Shown: piece after piece, positions 27,710 to 48,590 of the stretch | How the letters are laid out: the number at the start of each line of letters is the position of its first letter | How positions within the stretch are numbered: position 1 is the stretch's first letter | Assembly (NCBI GenBank): GCA_030583725.1 | Contig: CP129472.1 | Location: 529,902-593,901 of the forward strand | Length of the DNA stretch: 64,000 nucleotides | Direction: 5' to 3' | From: a bacterium | Lineage (GTDB): Bacteria; Patescibacteriota; Microgenomatia; UBA8517 | Made by a program: the position numbers and the translations under genes | Notes under the pieces: model-generated | Database searches by the model: none | What the model was told of the DNA's origin: nothing | What the model saw: only the letters and a program-made list of their open reading frames with translations

Positions 27710-28858
27710 ATGAAATACATACCTAGAGATTTAGAAAAGATTGTTTCTAAAGCTAGCAAGACCTTTAAAGTGGTTTTTCTTGGAGGTCCGAGACAAGTTG
27801 GGAAAACCACACTTTTGAAGAAGCTTTCGGAAAACGAATACAGAACATACGTAACTCTTGATGATTTAAATCAAAGAGAACTTGCAATAAAAGATCCAAA
27901 GTTTTTTATAGAGCAACTCAAACTTCCTGTAATTATTGATGAAGTTCAATATGCTCCAGAACTTTTCCCTGTAATTAAAGAAATAGTTGATCGGTCGGAT
28001 AAAAATGGCCAATTTTGGATTACAGGATCTCAACAGTTTAATTTAATAAAAAATATCCAAGAGTCTCTTGCTGGTCGAGTTGCAATTTTAGATTTACTCG
28101 GCCTATCTCAGAAGGAGAAGCCTAAATTGAAGACGGTTTTTGAAGAAATATTTGAAGGTGGTTTTCCAGTTTTTCAATCAAAAGATAAACCAGACAGAAA
28201 TATTTTTTTTAATTCATACGTCCAAACATATTTAGATAGGGATCTTTCAGGTATCTTTGGGGTAACTAAATTGTCAGAATTTAACAGATTTATCCAAGTT
28301 TGTGCAGCGAGGACTGCCCAAGTGTTAAACATATCTGATATGGCAAGAGATAGTGGTATTCCTGTCTCTACCGCAGTAGAATGGCTTTCTCTTTTGGAAG
28401 CTACAAAACAAATATTTTTGCTAAGGCCATATTTCCCAAATATAACAAAAAGAATAATTAAAGCCCCAAAGTTATACTTTTTGGACACTGGACTTGCTTC
28501 CTTTTTAACAAAATGGGATAGCCTCGAGAATCTAAAAGCAGGAGCGATGTCAGGAGCGATTTTTGAGACATACTTAATTGTAGAATTTATTAAAAAATAT
28601 ATAAACAAAGGAAAAGAGCCACCACTTTATTACATAAGGGACAAAGAGGGTCATGAGGTAGACTTGTTAGTGCACGATAACGGAATTCATATGTATGAAT
28701 TTAAACTTGCTGCTAAAATAGATACTGATTTTGAAAAAAACATGAATTATTTTGAACAAAAATCAAAAGATTTCAAGTCTAAAACAATAATTTCTTTAAT
28801 CAAAAAACCATTAAAAGTAACTTCTGGTGTTGAATATGTGCCATATACTCAAATATAG
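27710..28858 (+). CDS. AAA-superfamily ATPase (AAA_14 + DUF4143 type)
   Basis: 382 aa. 'VVFLGGPRQVGKTTLLKKL' P-loop and 'PVIIDEVQYAPELF' Walker B. Overall layout of the DUF4143 ATPase family. Confidence 0.6.
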   Translation: MKYIPRDLEKIVSKASKTFKVVFLGGPRQVGKTTLLKKLSENEYRTYVTLDDLNQRELAIKDPKFFIEQLKLPVIIDEVQYAPELFPVIKEIVDRSDKNGQFWITGSQQFNLIKNIQESLAGRVAILDLLGLSQKEKPKLKTVFEEIFEGGFPVFQSKDKPDRNIFFNSYVQTYLDRDLSGIFGVTKLSEFNRFIQVCAARTAQVLNISDMARDSGIPVSTAVEWLSLLEATKQIFLLRPYFPNITKRIIKAPKLYFLDTGLASFLTKWDSLENLKAGAMSGAIFETYLIVEFIKKYINKGKEPPLYYIRDKEGHEVDLLVHDNGIHMYEFKLAAKIDTDFEKNMNYFEQKSKDFKSKTIISLIKKPLKVTSGVEYVPYTQI

Positions 28859-29346: not shown

Positions 29347-31809
29347 ATGGGAAATGAATCTCAAATCAATTCCAAGTTTTCTATTGGCATACCTGCTTCT
29401 TTACCTGGCGGTGAAAGATATTCGCCAGAATCTGTAAGAAATTTAGCCAATGTACAGCCTGATGAGGGACATAATTTAAGAACTGGCATGGAGGTAAAAA
29501 ATCAATTGGAAGATCCTGCAGACCAACTATCTGCGCAAATAGCTGAACAAGTTGCTCGATTGTTATCTGAAGAACGGGGGGAGAGTAGCTCTTCATTCTT
29601 TGCTTTAACAGACATATTAGCGAAAGAGAGGTTGCCTAAAGATCCCGAAAAACTAAACCAAATATATCGAGGGTTTACGGTTGATGCGATGGGTTTGTTG
29701 ATAACTGATGTTAAGGGAATTCGTTTAAATATGGTTGCGGATCAATTTGGTTTACAAAGACATGGTGCAACTTTAGATCAAATGACAAATCGACTTGAAT
29801 CTACTTTGTCAAAGCATGTTAGCGTTGATAAACTAAAACCAGAAGTCCAGCCATTAGCAAAAGTTTTGATGGCAGATATGGCAAGATTCGGTGGTATTGA
29901 AAAAATGGTCGAACATGCATCAGTTTTTCAGATGTTTTATTATGATGGTCTGTATATGTACGGGGCATTAGCTTCTGGACGTAGAATAAAAGTTTTAGGT
30001 ACAGATGATTTAAGATTGATTTTTGGTAATTTAAAAGGACTGGACCTTAAAGGTGTGGAACCGAGTGAAGAAATTGGCGAAGGAGCTGGTGAAACGTTAA
30101 GAAAAATGGTTGCTAATCAAATTCATTTTGATATGGCGATCGCTTCACTTAACAGGTTTAATCCGAATAAGCCAGCGGGTCAAGAAACTGAGATGAAAAT
30201 GTCAGAAACAGAACGTGCATTTTTGGGTAGTCTGTTTAAAAAAGATGGAAACAAGACAAAAGAAATAACAGTTAACGGCAAAACTTTCCAAACAAATTTA
30301 TTGTCTTTCTATTTAACTACAGATAAAGAAAAAGAAAGAAAAACTTCAGAAAGCCTTATGCAAGCTTTACATGTCCATGATGCAAAGGATATCTTAGATT
30401 CAATTGGAGAAGATCCTACAAAATTTACCGCTCCTGACGATGCAAAATATAAAGATCTATTATCAAAGGTACAAAAAACTGCAAAAGAGATTGAAAATGG
30501 GTGGGACTCGTTTATATCCACCCCAAAAGCTAGATTGGCAAAATGGGCAGGAGAAATTGCGTTTACTACAAACATTGCAACATTAAATGTTAATGATTTA
30601 GCCTATGGCTTTGAATGGGAACAGGATAAGAAGGATAAAAGCTGGCAATTTAAGCCAGCAATAGCAGGACCAAATACTGGATACGATGCAGTAAACATTT
30701 GGCTCTCGATGCAACACGAATTGGAATATATGCTTAAGGCTAGGGTTAGAACACCCGCTTTCCCTGGTGTTGCAAGTGACCAAGCTTGGGATTTTATAAG
30801 AAAGATTGTGGTTGAAAAAGAAGACCCAAAAATTAAAAGTGAAATCTTAAAAGATAGGGGGCTCATGCTCGGGGCTGCTATATTGGGAATGTATGAAGGT
30901 GAAATAAAACTCAATGAAAAAGATCAAACCGAAGTAGATAATATTCGAGGAGCTAGATTTGCAAAGGGAGATACTACAAAAATGATGAGTTTTAACACTG
31001 TTGCATTAAAGGTTTTGGAAAAGTCAATTTTTGGTTACCCTACATGGGTAGAGGGAAAAGTTTTACCAATACCAATAAGAGGAATGTTTAATGGTATTAA
31101 TCTTTTAAAGACAATGGTTGTGGATCCAAAAGCTGGTAAAACCGTTTTTGATAAATTAAATGAAGGAGAAACACTTGCGAGTGACTCAATAGATTTTGAA
31201 AATCAAAGTCCATACGTCGTTGATTCATGGCATGTAAATTTAAAAATGCTGGGCGATGTAATGAGATTAATGTACGGTCAAGGAGACAAGAAGACTCAGG
31301 AATCTTATTTTGCAGGTTCGGCATCTGAAGGATTAGGAACTCTTATTAAAAAAATGGATATAGGTACCCGTGGGGAATATGTACCTATGGATTTGGGTGA
31401 AACAGAAGGTGACGGCGTTACCCCGAAATTAACAAATATACCCAGACCTTTTTACGAAATTGTATATACCGCTTATGCGGTAGTTTCGCATCTAGCCTTT
31501 GTTGATCACGGTATTTGGGATGCTGGGGGTAAATGGAGAGGATTAGACCCTACACTTTTTTGGGATGGAAATGGATCAAAAAAGGGTGTGAAACAATGGG
31601 TTGAAGCAGCATACACTTCGTTGCCAGACAATAAAGGATCATTCGATCATTATAGAGATAGCATGGTTTTAATGATTGAGGCTATAGCACAATGGATGGT
31701 AAGCATTGCTCCAGCAGCTGAAAAATTAGGTGCTAAACAACAAGATGAGGCAACAATGCCTTTTACAAGCTCATTTGATGCTTTAAAAACTCTTAATAAT
31801 AAGCGGTAG
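29347..31809 (+). CDS. large soluble hypothetical protein (no TM, no recognisable motif)
   Basis: 820-aa uninterrupted ORF. Converges on the VirB6-like gene with a 2-bp gap. Confidence 0.5.
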   Translation: MGNESQINSKFSIGIPASLPGGERYSPESVRNLANVQPDEGHNLRTGMEVKNQLEDPADQLSAQIAEQVARLLSEERGESSSSFFALTDILAKERLPKDPEKLNQIYRGFTVDAMGLLITDVKGIRLNMVADQFGLQRHGATLDQMTNRLESTLSKHVSVDKLKPEVQPLAKVLMADMARFGGIEKMVEHASVFQMFYYDGLYMYGALASGRRIKVLGTDDLRLIFGNLKGLDLKGVEPSEEIGEGAGETLRKMVANQIHFDMAIASLNRFNPNKPAGQETEMKMSETERAFLGSLFKKDGNKTKEITVNGKTFQTNLLSFYLTTDKEKERKTSESLMQALHVHDAKDILDSIGEDPTKFTAPDDAKYKDLLSKVQKTAKEIENGWDSFISTPKARLAKWAGEIAFTTNIATLNVNDLAYGFEWEQDKKDKSWQFKPAIAGPNTGYDAVNIWLSMQHELEYMLKARVRTPAFPGVASDQAWDFIRKIVVEKEDPKIKSEILKDRGLMLGAAILGMYEGEIKLNEKDQTEVDNIRGARFAKGDTTKMMSFNTVALKVLEKSIFGYPTWVEGKVLPIPIRGMFNGINLLKTMVVDPKAGKTVFDKLNEGETLASDSIDFENQSPYVVDSWHVNLKMLGDVMRLMYGQGDKKTQESYFAGSASEGLGTLIKKMDIGTRGEYVPMDLGETEGDGVTPKLTNIPRPFYEIVYTAYAVVSHLAFVDHGIWDAGGKWRGLDPTLFWDGNGSKKGVKQWVEAAYTSLPDNKGSFDHYRDSMVLMIEAIAQWMVSIAPAAEKLGAKQQDEATMPFTSSFDALKTLNNKR

Positions 31810-31811
31810 TA

Positions 31812-33470
31812 TTACCGGGTCTTTTGGAGCATCGCTTTGAATTTATTAACTGCGTCGTCCCATTCTCCTCGATACCCAACTTTTCTTGCGACCCATTCAG
31901 CGGCACGACTATTCATTGCTTTAACTGCTCCTTCAGCTGTAGCAATATCACTAACCGCTCGACCTGGTGCGGACTTTCTAACCATATCAATTGGTGCCAT
32001 GGCTTCACCAATTGCACTTCCAAAGTCGAATTTAGCACCCATGACAAGCATTTTCATAATATCAACCGCTTTTGGAACCATTGTTATAAATACAAAACTT
32101 ACGGCTATCCACAAAACACCAGCCATGTCTGCAGATGAACCCAAAATCGGAGGTGCCCATAGGTTTGTGTTACTCATCGCACCTGTAAATTCCCAAAGTT
32201 GTCCCCAACTAGCAGCAAAGGATGCATTTAAAGTTTTTACAGCTAGAAATAAAAATAAACCTGTTAAGGGAAAAACTAAAGCTTCAGCTATGATTTTTCT
32301 AAACCACATACTGAAACCTATTGCAGGTACGAGTGCACCTATCACTATTTGAATAGGAGCCACAACAATAGACAGAAATAGACTTATTAAATTTTTGAGA
32401 AGTACCCAGGGTATCTTGACGGTATACCACAACATTAATATAAGTACCCAGATGGTCATTAAGATTGCCAAAACACTTCCTATCCCGGCAAATATTGAGA
32501 GTCCTCCAATCGCACCAATGATGGACCATGCTGCCGCCAAAAAGAACAATATCGTATATGAAAACATATATATGAGTATATAAAAACCACCGAGTGCTGT
32601 GGTAGCCTCGATAGGCATAATTGTTCTAAATGCTTCATCAAAAGAAGTGGAAAATCCAGCAAGGTGCATAAGCTGTGCAAGTAATCCACCAACCACATAG
32701 GATAAGTCAATTACAAAACCAGCAATAGCATACGAAAACGTAGCTAAAACTAATGCAACAACAATTTTTGGTAATGCTGATTGGACTGAGATTACAAGCT
32801 GGGGTGAAAGTTTTACTCTAAACATAATCATAAATGCAAACACAATAACCACAAACACAACAAGTGCGTAAGCAACATTTCTAAATCCTTGCCAATATTG
32901 TTGCAGGCCATCAACTGCACCATATCCAAATCCTTGTGCCTGAACACTAGAAACTACGCCAAAACCAGAGACTAGATTGTTTATATACTTAATTCCAGAA
33001 AGAGGCCTGTTCTGGTACTCGTCAATGATAGAACTTGCAAACGAACCTTGTCGGGTATCGTTTCCTGTAACTCCTGTACTGATAAATATTACATCTATTG
33101 CACCACCTGCCGCCTCAAGGGATAGTTGGATACATTCGGCCTTGTCAATAACACTGCCTCCTGTAAATGCCCACATACATGCAACTGATTTTTGAACCTT
33201 ATCTCCCAAAAAATTTATAGGAAAAGAAAATAAACTATATAAAATCCACTGTACCTGAGCTGCAGTATACCTTTCTCCAAAGATTTCAGATGGGGGGGAT
33301 TCATCTCCATATACCTTTGCATACCAGTCAGTAAAACCTTGGTTGTACCAATTACTTGGGGCTTCGTCGGCTGCGTGGGCAACTGCAAAAGGCATGACCA
33401 TAGAATTTAAAAAAAGAATTGAAGAAAGAAAAATTAAAGATAGTTTTTTAAGAAACTTAGGCATTACCAT
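31812..33470 (-). CDS. VirB6/TrbL-like polytopic membrane protein (putative)
   Basis: 552 aa. Signal peptide, about 200-aa periplasmic domain, at least 6 TM helices, C-terminal cytoplasmic tail. The topology resembles VirB6/TrbL. Confidence 0.35.
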   Translation of the reverse strand: MVMPKFLKKLSLIFLSSILFLNSMVMPFAVAHAADEAPSNWYNQGFTDWYAKVYGDESPPSEIFGERYTAAQVQWILYSLFSFPINFLGDKVQKSVACMWAFTGGSVIDKAECIQLSLEAAGGAIDVIFISTGVTGNDTRQGSFASSIIDEYQNRPLSGIKYINNLVSGFGVVSSVQAQGFGYGAVDGLQQYWQGFRNVAYALVVFVVIVFAFMIMFRVKLSPQLVISVQSALPKIVVALVLATFSYAIAGFVIDLSYVVGGLLAQLMHLAGFSTSFDEAFRTIMPIEATTALGGFYILIYMFSYTILFFLAAAWSIIGAIGGLSIFAGIGSVLAILMTIWVLILMLWYTVKIPWVLLKNLISLFLSIVVAPIQIVIGALVPAIGFSMWFRKIIAEALVFPLTGLFLFLAVKTLNASFAASWGQLWEFTGAMSNTNLWAPPILGSSADMAGVLWIAVSFVFITMVPKAVDIMKMLVMGAKFDFGSAIGEAMAPIDMVRKSAPGRAVSDIATAEGAVKAMNSRAAEWVARKVGYRGEWDDAVNKFKAMLQKTR

Positions 33471-33691
33471 ATATTACAATATTTTTATGTTTTTTTATAG
33501 AACGATAATCAAAAACATATCGAATCTTACCTAACTAAAAAGTTTCTAGGCTTCACTTATGGTCTCAAACCTTGCTTATAGTCTTTCAAACCTCACTGAT
33601 TACACCAAAACCTTTGAAGCCTCCAACAATTGTTAGTCCGTAGATTTTTATCTATGAGCCACATATTGTAAAATCTTTAGTTTTTAGGAAT

Positions 33692-33726
33692 AGAAGCTCC
33701 TAGTTTATTAGGAACTAGGAGCTTCT
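33692..33726. terminator. perfect 14-bp-stem hairpin (agaagctcctagtt-N7-aactaggagcttct) downstream of the pilin-operon genes
   Basis: Inverted repeat with a 7-nt loop in the 470-bp gap between the 786-aa gene and the VirB6-like gene. The flanks are AT-rich but there is no clean U-tract. Confidence 0.25.
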
Positions 33727-33940: not shown

Positions 33941-36301
33941 TTATGGACAGCTGAAATCTGTCGGCCACTGAATACCAAATTTGCCATTTTTGGGACACCC
34001 CGTGACCCAATTCCAAGTTGTGTTCATAACATCGTAATAATACTGTGAAGCCACCGTGTCTGAAGGGTCGCATATTCCAGCCGAGCTTTGGTATCGGCTA
34101 AGCCATCCATGCATTGGTTCGGTATACCCAGACATTCCAGAACAAAACTGTTGTTTTGCAAGTTGTGTGAATTTAAGCACTTGCTCTGGCAAGTTTTGGT
34201 AAATTTCTTTTAAATTAACACCCATATCTTGAGTTGTTTCTCCACCCTCGCAATAATTGCTGGCCCCAGATTCATTAAGCCATATTGTTAAAGCAAAAGC
34301 GGGATTGACACCTTCTTTCTGGGCAACGCTAGCAACAAAATTATAGCATTCCTCTGCCATGTTGTTCTCGGGTCCGGGACATTTTTGGCTCCATCTATCT
34401 GCTAAATCAATAAAGTTTTCTTTAAAACTACCTAAGTATTTTGACGGAACAGCTGAATCGGGTACGGTAACATCGCAAGAGTCTAGTACTGTTGGTTCGC
34501 AATTTCCATTTGCAATTGGCTCACCGTATCCTTTGGGTCGTAGGGCTGTTTGTATTCCTTTTAAGAAATATTCATAGACTGAACCAATGTGGGGGAATGT
34601 GAGTTGCGTGGTACTATTTGCCCCATCTGACGGATAATTTGTTATCTTTACCTCTTGGTCGCCACCATTGGGACTATCACTTCTTGATGTGTCATATGTC
34701 ACGTCTGTAACTGTTGGTATATCTGCAATACATTCAACTGGTGCACCCTCCCCAACTTTTGGAAATATCTTTCTAAATGTACTTCCTGAGTCTGCAACTG
34801 TTTGGGCAAATATTTCATCTGCCCAAGGCGTTTTTGTTCCTGTTTTTAGAGTTATATATACCTGAGCATTACACTTATGCGTGTAAAATAACCTTTCTAC
34901 ACAAGGATAGACGTTTGGAATACACCTAAAAGTCTCAGTCACCTTACAAAGAACTTGGTCAATTTGATATTGAACTCCCAACACCTGCATTTCATCTTGG
35001 TCACCAGGAAACAGGTTGTCACCCTCATTTACTCTAATGTTTGCGGCACTACAACTTAAACCCAACTCGTTTGTTGGTAGTGATTCTACTGTTTCAGACA
35101 GTTTTTCAGCTTCATAACCAGACGGGGTAAATGTAGTATTTAGTAATTCGGATAAATCTTTAACTTCTTGTGTGTGGGCAAAATAAAGAGGAGCTTGCCT
35201 CATACCCGTAAATTGTATTCCATTGGGAAAAGAAATTTCAGTACCAGCCCCACCTTCAAAATTTGGCCCATCGCCCTTTATGTAATTTGCACCTTTTTTG
35301 TCAACCGTTGAGGATAGTGGAATATATGAATACAACTCAGACCATTTGTTTGGAACAATATCAATAATGCCTCCAATTGCAGGATCTGCACACTGAAGAC
35401 CTAAAAAGGGAAGGACAACACAAACTTTACCCTGCCATTCTTGATACGCTTTTTGATAGTCTATTTGTTTTTCAAAGTCCCAAGGTAGAGGAGGGAATTT
35501 GTTGTTCCATTTATCTATCCCTGGAATAAGATTTAAAACCCAATTTAAAGTTGAAAGACTACCTTCACCCCAGCTACTAAGCCTTAATGGTTCCCCACCC
35601 TGGCTACATGGAATTGGGTTTCCATCTTGTTCACATACCACAATCTGGTCGTGATTTTGAGGTTCGCTTACAGTAGCTCCTATATCCTCATCTTCATATG
35701 CCACATTAACAGAGGCATCGGTAATTGTTTTTCTCCTTTGGTGTTCCTGAATCATATAGGGGATTAGCTTATTAACAGGCCCTGAATAATTTACAACTTG
35801 TTCATTTGTTGGGGTCCCATATTCAGCCCTACCAACAACACCAGACAGGTACCAACTGGCGTACTCGTTTAATTTTTGTGCATCGTCAAATTCTTCTGTG
35901 CCACCATAGTTATTTGTAACTTGTTCCGTGTTGCCAAGTATCGCAAACTCAGATTCTGAAAGTTCAATATATAGATTATGTGGACCTACGGGATAGTTTA
36001 CATCACAGGTATAGTCACCAGTTCTCCCGTTTCTTGGGCACTGACTGCTCAAGTCAAATGTTTCTATAAATTGTATTTCATTGCTACAAAACAAAGCTTT
36101 ACCAGCATCTCCACATGGTGCACCTTGGTAGGGTCTTAAAGAGTGAAATTCATCGTCGCTTGTTTCGTCACACGGAAACTTAATTCCAGGTACCGCACCT
36201 TCATCTCCAGCTGAAATGCGATCAATCTTGTATGTAAAAAAGACAGTTAAAGTAGATAAAAGGACAATACAGAAAAAAAGAAGTTTAGATAAATTTTTCA
36301 T
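33941..36301 (-). CDS. Cys-rich secreted protein, possible lysozyme-like C-terminal domain
   Basis: 786 aa. Signal peptide, about 40 Cys. C-terminal 'VASVAQKEGVNPAFALTIWLNESGASNY' resembles motif I (E-S) of soluble lytic transglycosylases. The following GLMQ motif was not seen. Confidence 0.35.
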   Translation of the reverse strand: MKNLSKLLFFCIVLLSTLTVFFTYKIDRISAGDEGAVPGIKFPCDETSDDEFHSLRPYQGAPCGDAGKALFCSNEIQFIETFDLSSQCPRNGRTGDYTCDVNYPVGPHNLYIELSESEFAILGNTEQVTNNYGGTEEFDDAQKLNEYASWYLSGVVGRAEYGTPTNEQVVNYSGPVNKLIPYMIQEHQRRKTITDASVNVAYEDEDIGATVSEPQNHDQIVVCEQDGNPIPCSQGGEPLRLSSWGEGSLSTLNWVLNLIPGIDKWNNKFPPLPWDFEKQIDYQKAYQEWQGKVCVVLPFLGLQCADPAIGGIIDIVPNKWSELYSYIPLSSTVDKKGANYIKGDGPNFEGGAGTEISFPNGIQFTGMRQAPLYFAHTQEVKDLSELLNTTFTPSGYEAEKLSETVESLPTNELGLSCSAANIRVNEGDNLFPGDQDEMQVLGVQYQIDQVLCKVTETFRCIPNVYPCVERLFYTHKCNAQVYITLKTGTKTPWADEIFAQTVADSGSTFRKIFPKVGEGAPVECIADIPTVTDVTYDTSRSDSPNGGDQEVKITNYPSDGANSTTQLTFPHIGSVYEYFLKGIQTALRPKGYGEPIANGNCEPTVLDSCDVTVPDSAVPSKYLGSFKENFIDLADRWSQKCPGPENNMAEECYNFVASVAQKEGVNPAFALTIWLNESGASNYCEGGETTQDMGVNLKEIYQNLPEQVLKFTQLAKQQFCSGMSGYTEPMHGWLSRYQSSAGICDPSDTVASQYYYDVMNTTWNWVTGCPKNGKFGIQWPTDFSCP

Positions 36302-36314: not shown

Positions 36315-36590
36315 TTACCTCGTAATTGTAAAATTGGTGACGTTAGCACCTGTGAATGTTTCTATAATTTTTAAAATCAAAAAAGAACCTGCCAAAAGTA
36401 TTAAACCACCAATTGCATAGGTAAGTGTGTTTCTAGCTCCTTCTACAGCCTTAGGGTCACCACCTGAAGTTAAATATTTAAATCCACCTGAAAGAAGCAT
36501 TAAAAATAAAACTATTCCACCTAGGGCCAGTAGGGCAGCGACTACGTTTTCAAATACACCTGTCAATGCTGATAGTTGTGGTGGTTCCAT
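36315..36590 (-). CDS. VirB2/TrbC-like (T4SS pilin-like) protein, paralog 7
   Basis: 91 aa. TM1, 'SGGDPKAVEGARNTLTYAIGGL' loop, TM2. This family signature is shared with the six upstream paralogs. Confidence 0.45.
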   Translation of the reverse strand: MEPPQLSALTGVFENVVAALLALGGIVLFLMLLSGGFKYLTSGGDPKAVEGARNTLTYAIGGLILLAGSFLILKIIETFTGANVTNFTITR

Positions 36591-36634
36591 ACAAAGTAAG
36601 TTTAAATGAAAACAATAAATTGAGCAAGAGAAGA

Positions 36635-36976
36635 TTATTTAGACAGTTGTCCTGCTGAAGGAATGGTTAACTTCATTAAGTTAACTCCAAAGAAGGTGTC
36701 AATTAATTGAATTATTGCCCAAGCTGAAAAAACAATAACTAAACCAACCAAAGCTGCTGTAATTTGATTTCTTGCTCCTTCTGTGTGAGCTTTGTCACCA
36801 CCTGAAAGTATCCATTTAATACCACCAATAACTAGAATAAAGAAAAAGGCTAAACCTGCAACTACAAGCACTAATCCTATAAAACCAGAAACAATACCTT
36901 CAACTGTAAGACCTGTTGCTGGTTGAAAATTACCTAGCCCTTGGTTTAACTCTATTTGTGCAAGCAAATTATTCAT
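36635..36976 (-). CDS. VirB2/TrbC-like pilin-like protein, paralog 6
   Basis: 113 aa. 'SGGDKAHTEGARNQITAALVGL' between two hydrophobic helices. Confidence 0.45.
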   Translation of the reverse strand: MNNLLAQIELNQGLGNFQPATGLTVEGIVSGFIGLVLVVAGLAFFFILVIGGIKWILSGGDKAHTEGARNQITAALVGLVIVFSAWAIIQLIDTFFGVNLMKLTIPSAGQLSK

Positions 36977-36989
36977 ATGTATAAGCGTA

Positions 36990-37370
36990 TTATTGAATAA
37001 CCAGTGGACCTATGTCAATAGACAAAATGTCTATTCCAAAGAAACCTTCAATCAGTTTTGCGATTGCAAAAACTCCAACCATTAAAACCAAACCAATAAT
37101 TGCATTTGTAATTCTTCCTTTTGCATTTTCAACACTAGCCTTGTCACCACCAGACACAATCCATGTAATTGCACCCCAGAGGAACATAAAGAAAAATGCA
37201 ACACCACCAAAAACAAGCAGTATCCCCACAACCTTGGGGAGTAAAAGTTGTAAAAAACTTTCACCACCAGTTGGTCTTGTTACAAGGCTGGTATACATAT
37301 CACCGAACAAGGGATTTGTAATACCTCCACCTTTGTCAATTTCACCGCCCGCCAACAATTTATTATCCAT
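36990..37370 (-). CDS. VirB2/TrbC-like pilin-like protein, paralog 5
   Basis: 126 aa. 'SGGDKASVENAKGRITNAIIGL' between two TM helices. Confidence 0.45.
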   Translation of the reverse strand: MDNKLLAGGEIDKGGGITNPLFGDMYTSLVTRPTGGESFLQLLLPKVVGILLVFGGVAFFFMFLWGAITWIVSGGDKASVENAKGRITNAIIGLVLMVGVFAIAKLIEGFFGIDILSIDIGPLVIQ

Positions 37371-37371
37371 T

Positions 37372-37749
37372 TTATTTGATTTGAATCCTATCTAATAAGT
37401 TAGGTATTTGTAATATTCCTTCAATGTTAAATATTTGACCCATTAAATTTATTATAAAAATACCAAAAATTGTAATTAGTAAACCAATTAGCCCATTTGT
37501 GATCCTCTTTCTAGCAGCTTCAGTTGCCTTCTGGTCAGAACCAGCTCCCATATATGAAATACCGCTAGTAATGATTATTATCACAAACCAAACAATGGCG
37601 ATTATACTGACAAGCCCAATTGCGGTCGAAATAAAATTTTGAAATATTACAGCTGAAGTTGAGCTTGTTATTCCACCCTCTAAACCCAATGATCCAAAAC
37701 CTTCATATCCGTCATTTTCAAATAGTTCGATTTGAGTTAATTTGTTCAT
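37372..37749 (-). CDS. VirB2/TrbC-like pilin-like protein, paralog 4
   Basis: 125 aa. 'GAGSDQKATEAARKRITNGLIGL' between two TM helices. Confidence 0.45.
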   Translation of the reverse strand: MNKLTQIELFENDGYEGFGSLGLEGGITSSTSAVIFQNFISTAIGLVSIIAIVWFVIIIITSGISYMGAGSDQKATEAARKRITNGLIGLLITIFGIFIINLMGQIFNIEGILQIPNLLDRIQIK

Positions 37750-38084
37750 GGTGTAGGTATGGTTGGTTTAAGTATGAAATCCCAACTTCCAAAAAGTAGC
37801 TGTCCAAAGATTGCAGCTAGTACAAAAGCACCAGCTGAAAAAGCAAGACCAATAATAGTTTGATAGATTTGTGCCCAAGCTGCTGCGACTTTTTTGCTGT
37901 CATCACCCGCACCCATAAAAGAGTAACCAGCTAAAACCAAGTTAAATAAAGCATAAATTCCAGCTCCAACGACCAATGCACGTAGGCCAAACTGTATAAG
38001 TTTACCAAACGCAGGACCAGGTTCTAAACCATACTGTTGCAAACCTTCAGGTACTGTTACTGTGCCAAATGGGTTATTATCCAT
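37746..38084 (-). CDS. VirB2/TrbC-like pilin-like protein, paralog 3
   Basis: 112 aa. 'GAGDDSKKVAAAWAQIYQTIIGL' between two TM helices. Overlaps its neighbour by 4 nt. Confidence 0.4.
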   Translation of the reverse strand: MDNNPFGTVTVPEGLQQYGLEPGPAFGKLIQFGLRALVVGAGIYALFNLVLAGYSFMGAGDDSKKVAAAWAQIYQTIIGLAFSAGAFVLAAIFGQLLFGSWDFILKPTIPTP

Positions 38085-38093
38085 ACTTTTATT

Positions 38094-38429
38094 CTAATTT
38101 ATACCTCCAATTAAATCCAGTCCAGTTATTGATTCAATTAATTTAACTATCCAATAAGCACTAAATACAACCACAAAACCAATTAAGGCAGAAGTTGCAG
38201 CAAGTTTACCCTTCTGTACTGTTTGAGGATCATTTTTACCAGCTCCAGCTATCATTGCAATTCCACCACCGACCAACAAAAAAAGTAAAATTATTCCTGC
38301 AACTGAAATTGCACCAGCAAAAAAATTACTAACAAAAACACCAACACCTTCAGTATTTTTTAAATTTTGTCCAGAACCTCCTAAAAATGTATCTCCTATT
38401 TCAACTGCTAGTTTATTCATATTATCCAA
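38094..38429 (-). CDS. VirB2/TrbC-like pilin-like protein, paralog 2
   Basis: 111 aa. 'GAGKNDPQTVQKGKLAATSALIGF' between two TM helices. Confidence 0.45.
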   Translation of the reverse strand: MDNMNKLAVEIGDTFLGGSGQNLKNTEGVGVFVSNFFAGAISVAGIILLFLLVGGGIAMIAGAGKNDPQTVQKGKLAATSALIGFVVVFSAYWIVKLIESITGLDLIGGIN

Positions 38430-38736
38430 ATAAAGTTAAATCTATCCCAAGAAATTGCATTACTAGTTTTACAATCCAAAAAGATGTAAACAAAATGAGT
38501 ATCCCAATTGCAGATGTGGTTAACTTTGCTTGGGCTACCTGCATTACTTTTGGATCTCCCTGTGATGTCATCATTTTAAAACCACTAGTGACAATATTAA
38601 AAAGTAAAATTATGCCAGCTACACCAAAGATGTATGGGAGTGCCAATTCAATAAATCCGGCGGGCTCCAGTAACACGTTCCAAGCGGGTAAACCGGCGTT
38701 GTTTTGAATCGATGTAAAGGTTGATGTTTCAAACAT
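38422..38736 (-). CDS. VirB2/TrbC-like pilin-like protein, paralog 1
   Basis: 104 aa. 'SQGDPKVMQVAQAKLTTSAIGI' between two TM helices. Overlaps its neighbour by 8 nt. Confidence 0.45.
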   Translation of the reverse strand: MFETSTFTSIQNNAGLPAWNVLLEPAGFIELALPYIFGVAGIILLFNIVTSGFKMMTSQGDPKVMQVAQAKLTTSAIGILILFTSFWIVKLVMQFLGIDLTLFG

Positions 38737-38755
38737 TTTTATAATTTTATTTCAT

Positions 38756-39400
38756 TCATAAACTATCTAATCCTAGTATATCAATTCCTATGAACTTTAA
38801 TATAAATACACTAAAAATTAACATAATTAATCCTGAAATTGCAGAAGTTAAAAGTTCTTGACCTGCTTTTAATCTATCTGGTACTCCTTGGCTAGTCATA
38901 ATCATAAAACTGGCATAGACAATTAACAAAAATGCAATTCCACCACCAATACCAACAGCCCAACCCAATATCCAACCCATAAATGAATTTGTGTCACCAA
39001 CAGGAATACAACCTATGGCTGTGTTTATTGATTCTGCATCACATCCAGCCATCGGGTCAGAAACATTACCACCACCCATAGGGGTTAACTCTCCGTCTCT
39101 ACACCTTACACATTCAATAGCTTGTTGTGAGCCTCTACACACGTAAGAACAGTCATCGGTTGGAACTATCCCACCAGGAACCATTGTTTGCTGTACCGTA
39201 TCAGATGGGCACCCTTGACTTACTGGGTAACAAAGTTTTCCTGATGAAGAATTGCATCCAATTGTTCCCCTAGGACATTGTCCACCTGTCCCTGGTTGGA
39301 CCTGTGCAAATGTAGGTTTAATTGATGTGCTAGTTAAACTCAAAAGAATGAACAAACTCAATATTATTTTTTTCATAATTATCAACTTTGAGTTTAACAT
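38756..39400 (-). CDS. secreted Cys-rich protein with C-terminal pilin-like module (first gene of the pilin array)
   Basis: 214 aa. Signal peptide, 12 Cys in about 100 aa. The C-terminus 'TSQGVPDRLKAGQELLTSAISGL' plus flanking helices matches the paralog family. Probable true start is the internal Met at 39376 (MKKIILSLF...). Confidence 0.45.
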   Translation of the reverse strand: MLNSKLIIMKKIILSLFILLSLTSTSIKPTFAQVQPGTGGQCPRGTIGCNSSSGKLCYPVSQGCPSDTVQQTMVPGGIVPTDDCSYVCRGSQQAIECVRCRDGELTPMGGGNVSDPMAGCDAESINTAIGCIPVGDTNSFMGWILGWAVGIGGGIAFLLIVYASFMIMTSQGVPDRLKAGQELLTSAISGLIMLIFSVFILKFIGIDILGLDSL

Positions 39401-39438
39401 ACCGACAAAGTGTTTTCAGCTGGTATAATAAAATAATC

Positions 39439-41187
39439 ATGAATTTCAAATTTTTAAAGTACAGTTTATTGTTAATATTTATTCTTTTTTCATTGTTTGT
39501 TATCTACAACTTACCATCTACAACAAAAGCTGTAAGTGAATCAGACTGTCTAAACAAAAGTGTTTCTGAATTGTCTCAGTCTGAGATGGACGAATGTATA
39601 AATGTGATACTACCTAGAATTGCAGCTGCCTACGCACCCGCACAAGAGCAAAATAAAGCCAACCTTGCAGGCTTAAAAAAACAAATTGACAGTCTAAACG
39701 TTAGGATTAACTCAATTTCTAAGGAGTTGGTTGTCAAAGAAAGTAACATTCAAGAAAGAGAAAAAGATTCATCCTATGCCCAAAAAATTTTAAACCAAAA
39801 AGCAGTCAATCAGTACATTACATCAAGATTATATGACCCAATAACCGCCTTAATATCATCAGTTAATGTAATCGATGTTTTTAAAACAATAAAGATAACA
39901 GAAATGGTTGCTGAAGAAGACAGAAAAACTATAGAAAAATATTCAGAAGAAATTAATAATTTAAAAAATGATAAGGAGTCATTAGAAAAAAATAAAATAT
40001 CACTAGCAAGTTTACAAAAGAAAGTAAGTGGAGACGCCAAGTTTTTAGAGGCAGAAGTTGGAAAGGTTGATACCTTTTTGTCTGCCCTAAGTGCTAAACA
40101 ACAAGAAATTATAAATTTACGTTCCGGTAATTTTATAGCTAGTATTGGGGATGGTACCCTTGCCTCTACAGGTGTGTCTTCGAGATCTCATTTTCTTTCT
40201 TCTGCCCCCAGCGGTTACTATGCGGTATTTTCTTTTGGCGCATATACACATAGGAATGGAATGAGCCAGTATGGAGCACTGGGTAGGGTGAAAAATGGAA
40301 AATCGGCAGAAGACGTTTTACGTTATTACTATCCGGGTGTAAATCTTACACAAGTAAACACTAATGTAACAATTATTGTTAATGGTAAAAATACATATGG
40401 TCAGGTTTTCAATAATGAGCCTTATCAATTAGAAGAATATTTAAAACATATATATGAAATGCCCGGTTCCTGGCCAAAAGAGGTTTTGAAAGCTCAAGCG
40501 ATTGCAGCTAGAAGTTTCGCGTATGGAAAATCTACCATTTGTCCAGGCCAGTCTTGTCAGGAGTTTAAGCGTGAAGAAAATACTGACAATTGGAAAAACG
40601 CAGTCAAGGAGACTGAAGGAATAATAATGACGGGGGGGTCCGGTAGTTATCAATATTCTTCAACAACCGGAGGGTGGATGAATACGACTGGGTGGGATAC
40701 AACAGATGGACAAGGTGGAACTAATTTTCTTGAGAAAACATACGAAACGCTTGGGGGGTCACCTTGGACATATTTAGCGTGGTATGTTGATATATTTGGA
40801 GAGTATGGGTCGAAAGGGGGTACTTGTGGAAAAAGCAATCCATGGTTAAGTCCTGAAGAAATGGCCGATATAGTTAATGCTCATCTGGTTTTGACTAAAG
40901 GAACAGGAGAAGAACAATCTAGAATTTCGCCAGTAACAACGGGTTGCTGGCCTGGTAACCCATACAGTATTTCAGAACTAAGAAGTGTTGCAAGTAAGTA
41001 TGGTGGTATCGAAACCGCCACTACTTCACCATCTGTATTGCTAGGTAATGGAACGACTAATAGTGTTACTATAAACAGTATTCAGATGAGCGGGGCAGAA
41101 TTCAAACGTGCATTTGCTTTAAGAGCGCCCGGATTTATACGTATTCCTCAAAAAGGATTTGCATTTTTCAATATTGAAAAGAAGTAA
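39439..41187 (+). CDS. SpoIID/LytB-domain protein with N-terminal signal/TM and long coiled coil
   Basis: C-terminal 'YQLEEYLKHIYEMPGSWPKEVLKAQAIAARSFAYGK' is the SpoIID/LytB signature. Residues 60-230 are heptad-rich. The track ORF starts at 39388. 39439 (MNFKFLKYSLLLIF...) is preferred because 39388 would overlap the divergent gene. Confidence 0.55.
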   Translation: MNFKFLKYSLLLIFILFSLFVIYNLPSTTKAVSESDCLNKSVSELSQSEMDECINVILPRIAAAYAPAQEQNKANLAGLKKQIDSLNVRINSISKELVVKESNIQEREKDSSYAQKILNQKAVNQYITSRLYDPITALISSVNVIDVFKTIKITEMVAEEDRKTIEKYSEEINNLKNDKESLEKNKISLASLQKKVSGDAKFLEAEVGKVDTFLSALSAKQQEIINLRSGNFIASIGDGTLASTGVSSRSHFLSSAPSGYYAVFSFGAYTHRNGMSQYGALGRVKNGKSAEDVLRYYYPGVNLTQVNTNVTIIVNGKNTYGQVFNNEPYQLEEYLKHIYEMPGSWPKEVLKAQAIAARSFAYGKSTICPGQSCQEFKREENTDNWKNAVKETEGIIMTGGSGSYQYSSTTGGWMNTTGWDTTDGQGGTNFLEKTYETLGGSPWTYLAWYVDIFGEYGSKGGTCGKSNPWLSPEEMADIVNAHLVLTKGTGEEQSRISPVTTGCWPGNPYSISELRSVASKYGGIETATTSPSVLLGNGTTNSVTINSIQMSGAEFKRAFALRAPGFIRIPQKGFAFFNIEKK

Positions 41188-43463: not shown

Positions 43464-43470
43464 CACTTAG

Positions 43471-43844
43471 TGGAGATGGAGGGAATCGAACCCTCATCCG
43501 AAAAACTTTATAACAAAACTTCTACAAGCTTATTTAGTTAATGAAATTTCCTTTTAACTTATCCAACTAACAGGAGATTAAAAGTAAGATTTAATTATCT
43601 TTTGTAAAATTCCTTTAAATCAAAAGGAAAATTACAGCATCTCGAATTGGTTTACACCCAGTCGGTCCGATCGAGAATCAGACTTCAGGACGCCAGTTAA
43701 GCGTATAACATTTGATAGTTATAAGCGAAGCTAGGAGCGATGTTTTTAGGCATTGCTTTTAGTTTTTGATATCTTTTGACAAGTGTTTATCAAACTTGGC
43801 TTGCTGTTTTGTAAAAGAGCTATCCGTCGAAACCGGTCATCCCC
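43471..43844 (-). ncRNA. ssrA: tmRNA (ssrA)
   Basis: Minus-strand 5' end is GGGGAUGACCGGUUUCGACGG. The 3' end is a tRNA-like T-arm and acceptor GGUUCGAUUCCCUCCAUCUCCA that pairs with the 5' end. Internal tag-like reading frame ...APSFAYNYQMLYA-TAA. Lies 9 nt downstream of smpB. Confidence 0.7.
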
Positions 43845-44309: not shown

Positions 44310-44912
44310 ATGATTTATGATTTTCTTTTTCCTAAAAAGTGTTTAATGTGTAATTTTAAAGGAAAATATATATGTGAATCCTGTTTTAATAAGGTTCCAA
44401 AGGGTGGCTTAAGAAATGGTAATTATTCTATATTTACATATACAGGCATAGTTAGAAAAGCAATAATTTCTTTAAAGTATAAATTTGCGTTTGACATAGC
44501 AGATGAACTAACAGAGATTAGTCTTAAAAACTTAAAAACTTTTGAACAACCCAAAAACATTGTTTTACTCCCGATTCCATTACATTTCAGGAGAGAGAAT
44601 TGGAGAGGCTTTAACCAGTCAGAAATAATTGGAGAGAAGCTGGCAAAGGCAACTGGTTGGAAGTATGTTTCTGACTTACTTGTTAGGAACAAAAATACAC
44701 AGCCCCAAGTGGGATTAAAGGGTCTTGCTCGTCACCAAAATCTTGAAGATGTTTTTATTCTTAATAAAAATTATGAAATATCAAAGATAATTAATAAAAA
44801 AATTATTATTTTTGATGATGTTTACACAACAGGTTCTACCATAAAGGAGGCCAAAAAAGTGCTTATAAATGCAGGTTTTAAAAAGGTTTTCAGTTTAACG
44901 GTTGCGAGATAA
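44310..44912 (+). CDS. comF: ComF family protein (phosphoribosyltransferase-type competence protein)
   Basis: 200 aa. N-terminal 4-Cys zinc finger (C-x2-C ... C-x2-C). C-terminal PRTase motif 'IIIFDDVYTTGSTI'. Confidence 0.6.
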   Translation: MIYDFLFPKKCLMCNFKGKYICESCFNKVPKGGLRNGNYSIFTYTGIVRKAIISLKYKFAFDIADELTEISLKNLKTFEQPKNIVLLPIPLHFRRENWRGFNQSEIIGEKLAKATGWKYVSDLLVRNKNTQPQVGLKGLARHQNLEDVFILNKNYEISKIINKKIIIFDDVYTTGSTIKEAKKVLINAGFKKVFSLTVAR

Positions 44913-45416
44913 CAGTTGGAGTAAAAAGATTAAAAGAAAAGCAGTAAAAGACATTAAAGGTATTGTTATGTAGCCAAAAGTCATTACAAAAACTTTTGCA
45001 CAGCCCACTGAATAGCCAACCGCAACACAGGAAGATGGTAGCAATCCAAGCTGAGTTAGGTAGTGAAATCCTGCAAGTAAAACACCCATACCAGAGAGGG
45101 GAAGAACATATTTTGAAACATCTTTGTACCTATTTTTTAAGGAAACAAAAAGTATCACAACTAGTGGATACATTAGAATTCTTTGATACCAACAATACTT
45201 ACAAGGTTCAAAACCTGCAATCTCAGAATAATATAGACTCCCAAGCATTGATACTAAAGCAATTATAAAAGTATAAATATCTGCAAACTTAACTATTTTT
45301 TTAAAAAAGTTAGATTTCTTTTTTCTGTTTAGATACATCAAAACTAAAAGAATAATAATTTGAACTTGAGCAATAATAGTTAGAACTGATAAAAATTCTG
45401 TCATTGTAATGAGCAT
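44895..45416 (-). CDS. DsbB/BdbC-family disulfide bond formation membrane protein
   Basis: 173 aa. 4 TM. 'EPCKYCWYQRI' C-x2-C-x2-QR motif in the first periplasmic loop. Confidence 0.55.
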   Translation of the reverse strand: MLITMTEFLSVLTIIAQVQIIILLVLMYLNRKKKSNFFKKIVKFADIYTFIIALVSMLGSLYYSEIAGFEPCKYCWYQRILMYPLVVILFVSLKNRYKDVSKYVLPLSGMGVLLAGFHYLTQLGLLPSSCVAVGYSVGCAKVFVMTFGYITIPLMSFTAFLLIFLLQLLSRNR

Positions 45417-45833: not shown

Positions 45834-46901
45834 TTAATTACAAACTACAAAGTGTAAATATTCTGTTGTTCTATTTGTTGTAAATTTCCTATTTTGTGAT
45901 TTATCTGCCTTGAAACGGCCATATTCTTTTGTAAAGTGACCATATTTCCCACGCAAGCTCATTATTTGTTTAATGTCGTCTGTTGTCATTAAACCTTCGT
46001 TGTTGTAGCTTAAAAAGATATATTTAGCTTTTGCACTTAAGATTAAATCTCTAAATACATTTTTTACTTGTGTTCTTGAACAATAAAGGGATTTTTGGTC
46101 CTGATACTCACGCAAACCAGTTTTACCGTATATTTTTGGGTTGTCATATTTTGCTACAGTTTCAAGAATATGATAATTTGTCGCATATTGCCGATGGTTG
46201 TATGGCGGATCCAAATATAAAATGTCACCTTTAACTTTTTTTAATACTTTATTTATATCCTCGTTAAAAACTTCGTGATCTTGGTCGTTTATAATTAGTT
46301 CGGCTGGCTTTAAAATCAAATTATTCTGCGCTGTTCTCTTCAGTTTTTTTAGAAAGGCGCCATATACAGAAGCGGTGTTTGCATATTTATCAATTGATTC
46401 AATTAAACTTGTAATCAAAAAGTAGTATTCGTCACTAGAAATTAATTTTTTTATTTTCCAGTCTTCAATTTTTTGGCGTATAGCATCGCAACGCATACCA
46501 TTTTCATCAGAAAAATATTGTCGAGACTCTTTTTGATCCTTCGTTCCAGTGGGGCAGTAATTTTGGTATATAAAGCCTTTTACTCCTTTGAGGGCTGATA
46601 AATAGTCACAAACATTTTTTTTTCGTTTGCTAGGAATAATATTCTTGAGAGAAGAGATCTCTTTTGTTAATTTTTTAAAAAGTAATTCTTTATGATTTCC
46701 AATGTAATGTCTGTTTAAAATATAACTGTAGTATTGAATGTCATTAGCAACTATCTTGTATCCTTTTTTTTTAAAATGTTTACCAACAGCACCTGTTCCA
46801 GCAAACAGGTCACAAAAAGTGTTGCAGTTTTTGTCAACCACCTTGTTAATTGATTCTTCTAAAAATCCCAATAAAGATAGTTTACTGCCGATATAATTCA
46901 T
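45834..46901 (-). CDS. N6-adenine DNA methyltransferase, D12 (Dam-like) class
   Basis: 355 aa. 'MNYIGSKLSLL' N-terminus. 'FCDLFAGTGAVG' motif I. 'ILYLDPPYNH' motif IV. Confidence 0.65.
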   Translation of the reverse strand: MNYIGSKLSLLGFLEESINKVVDKNCNTFCDLFAGTGAVGKHFKKKGYKIVANDIQYYSYILNRHYIGNHKELLFKKLTKEISSLKNIIPSKRKKNVCDYLSALKGVKGFIYQNYCPTGTKDQKESRQYFSDENGMRCDAIRQKIEDWKIKKLISSDEYYFLITSLIESIDKYANTASVYGAFLKKLKRTAQNNLILKPAELIINDQDHEVFNEDINKVLKKVKGDILYLDPPYNHRQYATNYHILETVAKYDNPKIYGKTGLREYQDQKSLYCSRTQVKNVFRDLILSAKAKYIFLSYNNEGLMTTDDIKQIMSLRGKYGHFTKEYGRFKADKSQNRKFTTNRTTEYLHFVVCN

Positions 46902-46905
46902 AGTT

Positions 46906-47805: not shown

Positions 47806-47807
47806 AA

Positions 47808-48590
47808 CTACTTTTTGAAAATTAGAATATATTCGTGTTTAAAAATATAATAATCACTTGAAAGCGCTCTATATCTCCAAATACCTTCCCTGTTTTGTTT
47901 TGCGCGGTTGCCTGCCATGTTTTTAATTATAATACTTTTTAGTGTCAATCCTAATTTTTGCGCTTCATTCATGCAATAAAACCCTAAAGGTATCCATTTT
48001 CCGGCCGTGTATTTATCGCCAATGACAATCGTCAAGTACCTACCGTTTTCTAAAATTTCAATTGTATTTTTTATAACCTCTGCAAATTTATCTAAAAATT
48101 CTCTTAAAGATTTAGTATTTGATAAATCGTCCTTTAAATCGCTAAATTTAATTATATCGGCATATGGTGGGTGTAAAATTGCCAGTTGGACCTTTTCTTT
48201 ATTATATTTTTTTAAAACCTTACCTATCTCATCAAAAGTTCGAGTTTTAGTGCTATCTCCAACGATCAATTCAGAGAAGTTATTTTTAGATTCAATATTC
48301 TTACTTACATAATCAATGAGTTTACCTTGAATGTCAATTCCGATAAAATTCCTATTTAAACTCTCTGCCTCGTAAGCGGTTGTCCCACTTCCCAAAAAGG
48401 GGTCAAAAACGACTTCGTCTTTCTTTGTATATCTTAAAATCAACTGGTGGGGAATTTGGGGAACAAAGTTGCCGTGATAAAAGTTACTATGTTTTCCTGT
48501 TTTATCTCTTTCAGGAATTATCCAAAGACTATCAGTCCAAATTTCTGATTTGCCCCATTCTTTTATATTAAGATCGTTAAAAAATGGCAT
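47808..48590 (-). CDS. DNA methyltransferase (N6-A/N4-C family, HPPY motif)
   Basis: 260 aa. 'VFDPFLGSGTT' motif I. 'ILHPPYADI' motif IV. Size like M.DpnIIB/M.MboIC. Confidence 0.6.
   Translation of the reverse strand: MPFFNDLNIKEWGKSEIWTDSLWIIPERDKTGKHSNFYHGNFVPQIPHQLILRYTKKDEVVFDPFLGSGTTAYEAESLNRNFIGIDIQGKLIDYVSKNIESKNNFSELIVGDSTKTRTFDEIGKVLKKYNKEKVQLAILHPPYADIIKFSDLKDDLSNTKSLREFLDKFAEVIKNTIEILENGRYLTIVIGDKYTAGKWIPLGFYCMNEAQKLGLTLKSIIIKNMAGNRAKQNREGIWRYRALSSDYYIFKHEYILIFKK

Follow-up and report, generated by a model that had tools for sequence, protein, structure and literature searches.

Why does a single bacterial locus carry eight consecutive, divergent genes for what looks like one small pilin-like module, and do these genes encode interchangeable variants or different parts of one structure? 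We addressed this question for a stretch of 64,000 nucleotides from a member of the Microgenomatia (GenBank assembly GCA_030583725.1, contig CP129472.1, positions 529,902 to 593,901), which we call the window and in whose own numbering all its positions are given. Between positions 36315 and 39400, the list of open reading frames (ORFs) and an alignment of their products revealed eight consecutive, co-oriented ORFs on the minus strand (p1 to p8), each encoding a module that consists of a first transmembrane (TM) helix, a charged loop and a second TM helix. The analysis supports the view that these genes are the VirB2-like subunit set of a chromosomal, monoderm-type type IV secretion system (T4SS) in a Woesebacteria-like bacterium of the candidate phyla radiation (CPR). 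The array is a member of an already published kind of Patescibacterial VirB2 array and not a new system.

A tandem array of VirB2-like paralogs

As an initial annotation made from the letters alone had proposed, all eight products align over one shared TM1/loop/TM2 module, and all of them match the Pfam family PF18895 (T4SS_pilin). Four scored above the gathering threshold of 26.6 bits (39.1, 33.0, 32.1 and 31.2 bits), while the other four scored between 17.6 and 21.4 bits. A family hidden Markov model (HMM) built from 56 members recovered exactly p1 to p8 among the 253 window ORFs of at least 45 amino acids (aa), with E-values ranging from 7e-27 to 2e-37, which is far beyond chance. Judged by these scores (E ≤ 7e-27 for all eight), the four proteins under the Pfam cut-off are unambiguous paralogs. 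Weak matches to the NCBIfam model NF045849, which describes a pilin-like conjugal transfer protein of a Mycoplasma integrative conjugative element, were obtained for all proteins but p4 (E-values of 9e-7 to 0.016, all below the cut-off). The profile similarity to VirB2 or T4SS-pilin families on which the initial annotation had let its proposal depend is present in eight of the eight proteins with PF18895 and in seven with NF045849. Its exclusion of type IV pilins also agrees with our data, since the G|F-T-L-I-E class III motif occurs in none of the eight and no match to a pilin N-methylation family was obtained.

As far as the sequences tell, the link between the array and VirB2/TrbC is solely transitive and runs via proteins that match both Pfam models. 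A profile of the eight proteins retrieved 85,348 cluster representatives at E ≤ 1e-3. The proteins P0362 and P0376, recovered with this profile at E-values of 2e-61 and 1e-47, score 302 and 264 bits with PF18895 as well as 83.8 and 144.6 bits with the TrbC/VirB2 model PF04956 (cut-off 27.9 bits), and in P0376 the best-matching stretches for the two models overlap (residues 2-105 against 44-106). On these profile matches, the module is assigned to the VirB2/TrbC superfamily in the broad sense, specifically to PF18895, and is not a canonical VirB2. A tblastn search with p7 against plasmids gave nothing significant, the top hit (E-value 0.3) being an annotated pilin on a Rubrobacter plasmid. This gene of Rubrobacter tropicus (NZ_CP045120.1, 193477-194067; locus L010) has a gene for a T4SS coupling protein on one side and one for a 1450-aa DUF87 ATPase on the other. 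Because an annotated pilin sits on this actinobacterial plasmid, VirB2-like genes appear not to be confined to diderm systems and the CPR.

Within the array, the intergenic distances in gene order from p1 to p8 are +19, −8, +9, −4, +1, +13 and +44 nt. The overlap sizes of 4-8 nt that had been noted at first are correct, but what had been described as several overlaps comes down to two pairs, namely p2/p3 (8 nt) and p4/p5 (4 nt). Because the gaps are small or the genes overlap, we expect p1 to p8 to be co-expressed. Sigma-70-like sites were not enriched in a promoter scan, with 17 sites found compared to 20.0 ± 5.1 expected from shuffled sequence.

Conserved positions, fused modules and a variable lead protein

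We compared the window with ten related loci (L001, L002, L003, L005, L006, L007 and L022-L025), that is 11 genomes, the closest relatives being Woesebacteria metagenome-assembled genomes. Exactly eight pilin genes were found again in all ten loci. In the first seven genomes the nearest neighbour fell into the same positional group for 56 of 56 proteins, and in the other four genomes the best window hit was at the same position for 32 of 32. Positional assignment was correct in 88 of 88 cases, and the order was the same in the 11 genomes. Mean core identity within positions p1 to p8 amounted to 79, 48, 58, 68, 50, 55, 72 and 56%, respectively (first seven genomes), compared to 18-41% between different positions; the eight window paralogs show 16-39% mutual identity. 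Positional orthologs of p2 were present in the 10 other genomes, and the identity between positional orthologs was 49-73% for p3, 56-80% for p4, 40-66% for p5, 48-70% for p6, 58-81% for p7 and 55-76% for p8. Since same-position identity exceeds between-position identity across genomes, the duplications must be old and each copy must be under its own constraint. Within the 11 genomes, the array genes showed no trace of having been gained, lost, converted or shuffled, and the insertion of a foreign ATPase gene in L002 is the one disruption. Genes for an AAA_14/DUF4143 ATPase occur at three sites of the cluster in three genomes (window 27710-28858, plus strand; L002 2373-3659; L023 15460-16611) and behave like a mobile insertion. 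The L002 copy, whose family was judged from its sequence (P-loop), sits within the pilin array at the p3/p4 junction.

The pilin modules also occur fused to one another. Among the best 150 of the 85,348 representatives, each chain carries 2-17 pilin modules, and some of the linkers measure merely 8-12 aa. A three-module protein from Curtissbacteria has a p1-like module first and two further modules after it, and a two-module protein from Woykebacteria is located inside a pilin array. Because such natural (Rosetta-stone) fusions join different modules, these modules are expected to lie side by side in one assembly. Positional orthology favours non-redundant parts of one structure over antigenic or alternative-use variation. 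Between the two options offered by the initial annotation, the multi-subunit structure thus fits the fixed orthogroups and the module fusions, whereas antigenic diversification is disfavoured. Multi-module chains are found in P0361-P0510 and at L027 8001-8660 and L026 10001-15328. One 1775-aa protein with 17 modules matches both TrbC and T4SS_pilin. Its contig is archaeal-looking (ribosomal protein L39e, Cas4), and no T4SS gene was found within about 10 kb upstream or in the 3.3 kb of contig downstream.

The first protein of the array, p1, is the sole paralog with a leader. Its probable start is Met9 (39376), which yields 206 aa as in the NCBI model QY322_03200. It consists of a Sec-type signal peptide with a predicted cleavage at about ..PTFA|Q, a 91-aa Cys-rich insert, the disulfide-loop motif C..INTAIGCIPV and the TM1-loop-TM2 core, and an AlphaFold2 model places a hairpin of two helices at residues 129-160 and 166-201 (pLDDT 85-94). 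The fusion of the pilin-like module to a signal peptide and a Cys-rich region, as first described for the 214-aa gene call, was thus borne out, but the protein has 10 Cys in total instead of the 12 counted before. The p1 core is better conserved than that of any other paralog and is 80-94% identical to many Woesebacteria proteins of 120-140 aa. Between the leader and the motif C..I-N/D-T-A-I-G-C-I-P-V, the relatives of p1 carry inserts of 5-112 aa with 0-13 Cys. In the 30 proteins whose insert reaches at least 40 aa (435 pairs), mean identity is 84% for the core and 25% for the insert. A surface-exposed recognition element would be expected to look like this, with a disulfide-rich and hypervariable insert carried by an invariant core. 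The Chitinophagaceae locus L008 was rejected, its signal-peptide match being spurious. In L003, a stretch between p8 and the ortholog of the next gene, cys786 (12950-13165), resembles the p1 signal peptide and the start of the insert (44% identity, residues 9-75), and a Cys-rich module may have moved within this locus. A few kb from the array lies a DsbB gene (44895-45416, minus strand), the counterpart of which in L025 (867-1780) is accompanied by a thioredoxin-like gene. A DsbB gene this close is in keeping with oxidative folding of cys786 and of the Cys-rich insert in p1.

Hydropathy analysis revealed two hydrophobic segments in each short paralog, and two plus the signal peptide in p1. The mean net charge per protein is +1.16 in the loop, −0.94 in the N-tail and −0.41 in the C-tail, a distribution that fits an N-out/C-out insertion with the conserved basic loop in the cytoplasm. 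The loop, with the motif S-G-G-D-x-K..A...I-T.A..G-L, is the most conserved region, and the tails are the least conserved: between paralogs, the N- and C-tails are 7% and 15% identical, respectively, compared to 24-31% for the helices plus loop. This is the opposite of the initial expectation that variation would be concentrated in an exposed loop. The loop motif described at that time can be traced in the alignment, but strict invariance among the eight is limited to the Gly of 'I-G-L'. A further common element is an N-terminal box, M-(N)-N/K-L/K-L-A-Q, which was found at positions 3-7 in 45 of 55 proteins (p3-p7, window 36635-38429, and their orthologs in the related loci L001-L007 and L022-L025), whereas 4 of 71 control ORFs have it; the remainder of the N-tail is the region with the lowest conservation. 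The box is similar to the cleavage site of p1 (..F-A|Q) and of canonical VirB2/TrbC leaders at residues −3 to +1, and it might serve as a short leader or recognition tag, or be a vestige. We also considered the L-A-Q box as a general cleavage site between fused modules; this idea was rejected since the linkers contain 31 boxes compared to 22.7 ± 4.4 in shuffled sequence, which is not a significant enrichment.

The surrounding secretion and cell-wall genes

The array is part of a cluster of T4SS and cell-wall genes that adjoins dnaA and dnaN (Table 1), the virB4 gene being located 10.5 kb from the array. According to a TM scan, the 915-aa membrane protein starts with a long cytoplasmic part, continues with a TM block rich in Gly and Ala and ends in an outside domain that contains the HELAH sequence. 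By analogy, it may be the counterpart of the essential peptidase downstream of virB4 in S. epibionticum. The TrsD-like protein shares 66% identity with its ortholog in L005. Neither a coupling protein nor a relaxase domain was detected in the window ORFs of at least 150 aa, of which all but three were scanned (two inside longer genes, plus 60082-60543), and VirB5, VirB7, VirB9 and VirB10 were not found.

Table 1. Positions of the array genes and of the neighbouring features in the window.
Feature	Position	Strand	Properties
dnaA	17873-19318		adjoins T4SS cluster
dnaN	19525-20628		adjoins T4SS cluster
915-aa membrane protein, putative metallopeptidase	21206-23953	−	directly 3' of virB4; HExxH (HELAH); weak Peptidase_M64 match, E 5e-4
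VirB4-like conjugal transfer ATPase	23956-25821	−	NF045971 (CD1110 family) 370.9 bits, cut-off 325; PF19044, PF12846
TrsD-like protein	25818-26519	−	resembles VirB4 N-terminal domain; NF041427 E 2e-5, NF045975 E 2e-6, both below cut-off
PrgI (VirB3-like) fused to CarboxypepD_reg	26540-27577	−	PF12666 E 1.5e-5; PF13620
tm552, polytopic membrane protein	31812-33470	−	N-terminal TM, ~170-aa outside domain, then ~6-8 TM segments
Perfect 14-bp hairpin	33690-33726	−	~215 nt 3' of cys786; −22 kcal/mol, z = −6.1
cys786, secreted or anchored Cys-rich protein	33941-36301	−	786 aa, 25 Cys, N-terminal hydrophobic segment; 13 nt after p8
p8, last and shortest pilin paralog	36315-36590	−	91 aa; PF18895 39.1 bits
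p7, leaderless pilin paralog	36635-36976	−	113 aa; PF18895 31.2 bits
p6, leaderless pilin paralog	36990-37370	−	126 aa; PF18895 33.0 bits
p5, leaderless pilin paralog	37372-37749	−	125 aa; PF18895 21.4 bits
p4, leaderless pilin paralog	37746-38084	−	112 aa; PF18895 17.6 bits; family HMM E 9e-28
p3, leaderless pilin paralog	38094-38429	−	111 aa, TTG start; PF18895 32.1 bits
p2, leaderless pilin paralog	38422-38736	−	104 aa; PF18895 18.7 bits; family HMM E 1e-30
p1, lead pilin	38756-39400	−	214 aa as called; PF18895 20.0 bits
SpoIID-domain cell-wall enzyme	39388-41187	+	PF08486 54.5 bits; divergent from p1

In agreement with the initial annotation, the gene that follows the array encodes the Cys-rich protein cys786. 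Its N-terminal region, which is conserved and beta-rich, spans about 600 aa and is followed by a C-terminal lysozyme-like domain (residues ~610-786) with the invariant Glu677, and the protein is a candidate VirB1-type cell-wall hydrolase. Neither cys786 nor nine relatives matched any Pfam or NCBIfam model, the SLT, VirB1 and CD419 families included, and no structural match was obtained for the CPR-specific N-terminal ~600 aa. The C-terminal domain of the family is fast-evolving and falls into four sequence clusters that are joined to one another at the profile level alone. The possibility that these are swapped, unrelated C-terminal toxin modules was rejected, since hhalign links the four tail clusters with 79-94% probability and they share the helix-Glu motif.

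The order array, cys786, tm552 was found wherever both neighbours are present, and the tm552 ortholog lies directly 3' of the cys786 ortholog in L005, L006 and L022. In total, tm552 has about 7-9 hydrophobic segments. It gave no Pfam or NCBIfam match, its profile search against the PDB was empty, and no Pfam domain was present in the 120 listed of its 1011 homologs; an hhalign comparison with four VirB6 sequences of the mating-pair formation class MPF_T yielded 0.5% probability. In the window, cys786 and tm552 are separated by a 470-bp spacer that contains the hairpin listed in Table 1, whereas the gap in the relatives is 6-64 nt and without such a spacer. The hairpin may mark the operon end; it was not called in a terminator scan, as it has no U-run. 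On the other side of the array, the divergent SpoIID gene precedes p1 in 10 of 10 related loci. After the array and its downstream genes, a co-oriented prgI follows in L005, L006, L022 and L025, with trsD seen in L005 and L025 and virB4 in L025. Two plus-strand genes are inserted between tm552 and prgI in the window. In this interval, the ORF at 29347-31809 (plus strand) encodes an 820-aa soluble protein without Cys, TM segments or a Pfam or NCBIfam match, of which no ortholog was found in the related loci. Elsewhere in the window we noted a tmRNA gene (43468-43844, minus strand; 138 bits) and, at 45834-48590 on the minus strand, two DNA methyltransferase genes (D12 class N6-adenine; N6_N4) on either side of a 299-aa ORF without annotation, which together are possibly a restriction-modification unit.

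A proposed heteromeric structure and its rivals

Arrays of this kind have been described before. The predicted-pilin series in the T4SS cluster of Ca. Southlakia epibionticum ML1 is essential (Wang et al., Cell 2023, PMC10633639), and a survey that applied PF18895 and PF04956 to 3,035 Patescibacteria genomes counted 441 VirB2 arrays of 2-11 genes (mean identity 25%) in 383 assemblies, those of Microgenomatia and Saccharimonadia above all (Quinonero-Coronel et al., Microb Genom 2025, PMC12102498). In the survey, closeness of arrays to dnaA was noted, VirB6 homologues are reported as scarce in Microgenomatia, VirB1 as lacking in most genomes with VirB2 homologues, and the genes for peptidase and lysozyme that follow virB4 in S. 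epibionticum as essential, monoderm T4SSs have been reported without pili, and host-range versatility is suggested by analogy to Bartonella and Anaplasma (PMC12102498). A 2025 review repeats the array finding and speculates on a pilus-like conduit (PMC12857230). Our locus shares with the published arrays (PMC12102498, PMC10633639) the tandem, divergent PF18895 pilins, at an identity between positions that compares with the published mean, the monoderm, MPF-FATA-like T4SS (VirB4, TrsD, PrgI) with no relaxase or coupling protein nearby, the dnaA-dnaN adjacency and the abundance in Microgenomatia. Not found in the excerpts of these accounts were the fixed eight-position orthology, the limitation of the signal peptide and the Cys-rich hypervariable insert to the first gene, the MNKLLAQ-like box on leaderless paralogs, and the conserved protein with a lysozyme-like domain downstream.

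Comparison with better-known systems places the array further. In common with Agrobacterium VirB2 and RP4 TrbC, it has proteins of about 70-100 mature residues with two hydrophobic helices that flank a short basic loop, a leader that terminates in A|Q (p1 only), and genes beside VirB3/VirB4 and a (here putative) lytic transglycosylase. It differs from them in that its loop exceeds theirs by about 7 residues, p2 to p8 are leaderless, eight differentiated copies are present instead of one, and the host is a monoderm in which the VirB5, VirB7, VirB9 and VirB10 components were not found. Canonical VirB2/TrbC proteins form an extracellular pilus with bound phospholipid and undergo head-to-tail cyclisation in some members. 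The tandem virB2 genes of Bartonella and Anaplasma, as cited in the survey (PMC12102498), are likewise divergent copies in a row within a T4SS locus of a host-dependent organism; those copies are read as antigenic or host-interaction variants, whereas positional orthology argues for non-redundant roles here. By analogy only, the array recalls the pseudopilin sets of type II secretion systems and type IV pili (GspG with GspH-K), in which one highly conserved subunit and differentiated, conserved small subunits are encoded in one operon, share one fold and co-assemble into one filament. The fold and leader of these proteins are unrelated, the array being without a class III signal peptide or prepilin peptidase motif. 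Like VirB1, EtgA, FlgJ and the Tn916-like Orf17 hydrolase, cys786 has a lysozyme-like fold in which a helix precedes an invariant Glu, and it is encoded beside pilin genes. It differs from VirB1-type enzymes in having no profile match, in being fused to some 600 aa of CPR-specific, Cys-rich sequence, and in its four fast-evolving clusters.

On balance, we lean towards a heteromeric, T4SS-assembled, pilus-like conduit that crosses the wall with the help of the lysozyme-like protein. In such a structure, the VirB4/TrsD/PrgI machinery would extract the hairpins from the membrane, with tm552 possibly serving as a VirB6-like platform, and p1 to p8 would co-assemble into a single conduit leading through the wall in the direction of the host cell. 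Its lumen would be lined by the loop, with the variable tails pointing outward; the p1 insert would serve as a surface or adhesion determinant specific to the host, and cys786 would open peptidoglycan, the cell's own or that of the host, for the structure. Because the window scan revealed neither a coupling protein nor a relaxase, the system would probably move proteins or other molecules rather than conjugate DNA, as proposed for Saccharibacteria.

A smaller but substantial share of our credence goes to a membrane-resident complex, in which the hairpins stay in the cytoplasmic membrane as a ring, pore or platform of the T4SS translocon, comparable to a c-ring or to holin-like small subunits, while the p1 ectodomain projects. 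This would suit the monoderm T4SSs without pili mentioned in the survey (PMC12102498), the absence of a leader to be processed from seven of the eight proteins, and the fusions of 2-17 hairpins, which with some linkers as short as 8-12 aa look like ordinary polytopic membrane proteins; fold searches, moreover, could not distinguish the module from any other helical hairpin. Against it speak the tie by sequence to the TrbC/VirB2 pilins together with the Pfam pilin annotation, and the dedicated wall hydrolase and SpoIID protein as fixed neighbours, which fit a wall-crossing structure. The hypervariable Cys-rich insert on an invariant core suggests an outside partner, which is hard to square with burial under the wall and S-layer. 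Considerably less probable is the use of the paralogs as interchangeable major pilins, singly or mixed, for antigenic variation, phage evasion or host-range switching. The published survey (PMC12102498) favours this model, which was proposed for the Bartonella and Anaplasma copies and suggested for Patescibacteria, and the strong divergence of the paralogs (16-39% identity) and the variable tails, which would face outwards, agree with it. However, the eight positions are kept in order in 11 genomes (88 of 88), each far more conserved than the paralogs are mutually, the L002 insertion being the lone disruption. The element that is hypervariable between genomes is the p1 insert and not the choice of paralog. 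Separate expression of single copies is also at odds with genes that overlap or nearly abut, with sigma-70-like sites no more frequent than in shuffled sequence, and with multi-module fusions that force co-expression. The remaining idea, that these are unrelated small membrane proteins (for example holin, immunity or transporter accessory proteins) that match Pfam merely through the composition of their two hydrophobic helices, we hold to be very improbable. Four of the eight proteins do fall below the Pfam cut-off, other weak Pfam matches point to unrelated membrane families, and structure does not discriminate, but conservation peaks in the loop motif and not in the hydrophobic helices, linkage to VirB4/PrgI/TrsD is conserved, and the bridging proteins also match TrbC. 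The Rubrobacter tblastn hit, not significant alone, points in the same direction.

Several observations nevertheless weigh against the heteromeric conduit. The VirB2/TrbC architecture that was claimed at the outset stands as regards the T4SS_pilin match and the basic loop between two helices, but a direct match to PF04956 was not obtained for any of p1 to p8 at E ≤ 1. Likewise, an hhalign comparison of 56 CPR pilins with seven MPF_T VirB2/TrbC sequences from plasmids (the Agrobacterium VirB2 among them checked at 99% identity) gave 8% probability (P = 0.004), albeit in the expected TM1/loop/TM2 register, and a PDB sequence search with the profile of the eight returned noise (best E-value 0.42) and neither VirB2 nor TraA. 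VirB2 typically has a long cleaved leader, whereas p2 to p8 are without an N-terminal signal peptide and the upstream gene leaves no room for one. Seventeen fused hairpins correspond to 34 TM helices, which are more easily pictured as membrane-resident than as extracted. No filament has been seen for any Patescibacterial T4SS, and pilus formation is hypothetical (PMC12857230). Finally, tm552 is put forward as a candidate divergent VirB6-like platform without sequence support, and it is by conjecture that p1 might be the major subunit or an adhesin and that roles might be given to individual paralogs. A more far-reaching form of the heteromeric conduit would have the eight positions as stoichiometric, non-redundant blocks, the p1 insert as the determinant of host specificity and the MNKLLAQ box as a new processing or recognition signal. 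We consider this combination doubtful, but if it is true, no earlier example exists of a conjugative-type pilus in which many different VirB2-like subunits are combined.

Much of the diversity of uncultured bacteria belongs to the Patescibacteria, which live attached to host cells, and in the sole species that is genetically tractable this lifestyle depends on the T4SS with its essential series of pilins. The array is accompanied by a lysozyme-like partner and by a polytopic membrane protein, in a class for which the survey reported VirB1 and VirB6 as scarce (PMC12102498). Taken together, orthology and fusions argue that the paralogs cooperate in one structure, the variable surface element of which would be the N-terminal insert of a single subunit.

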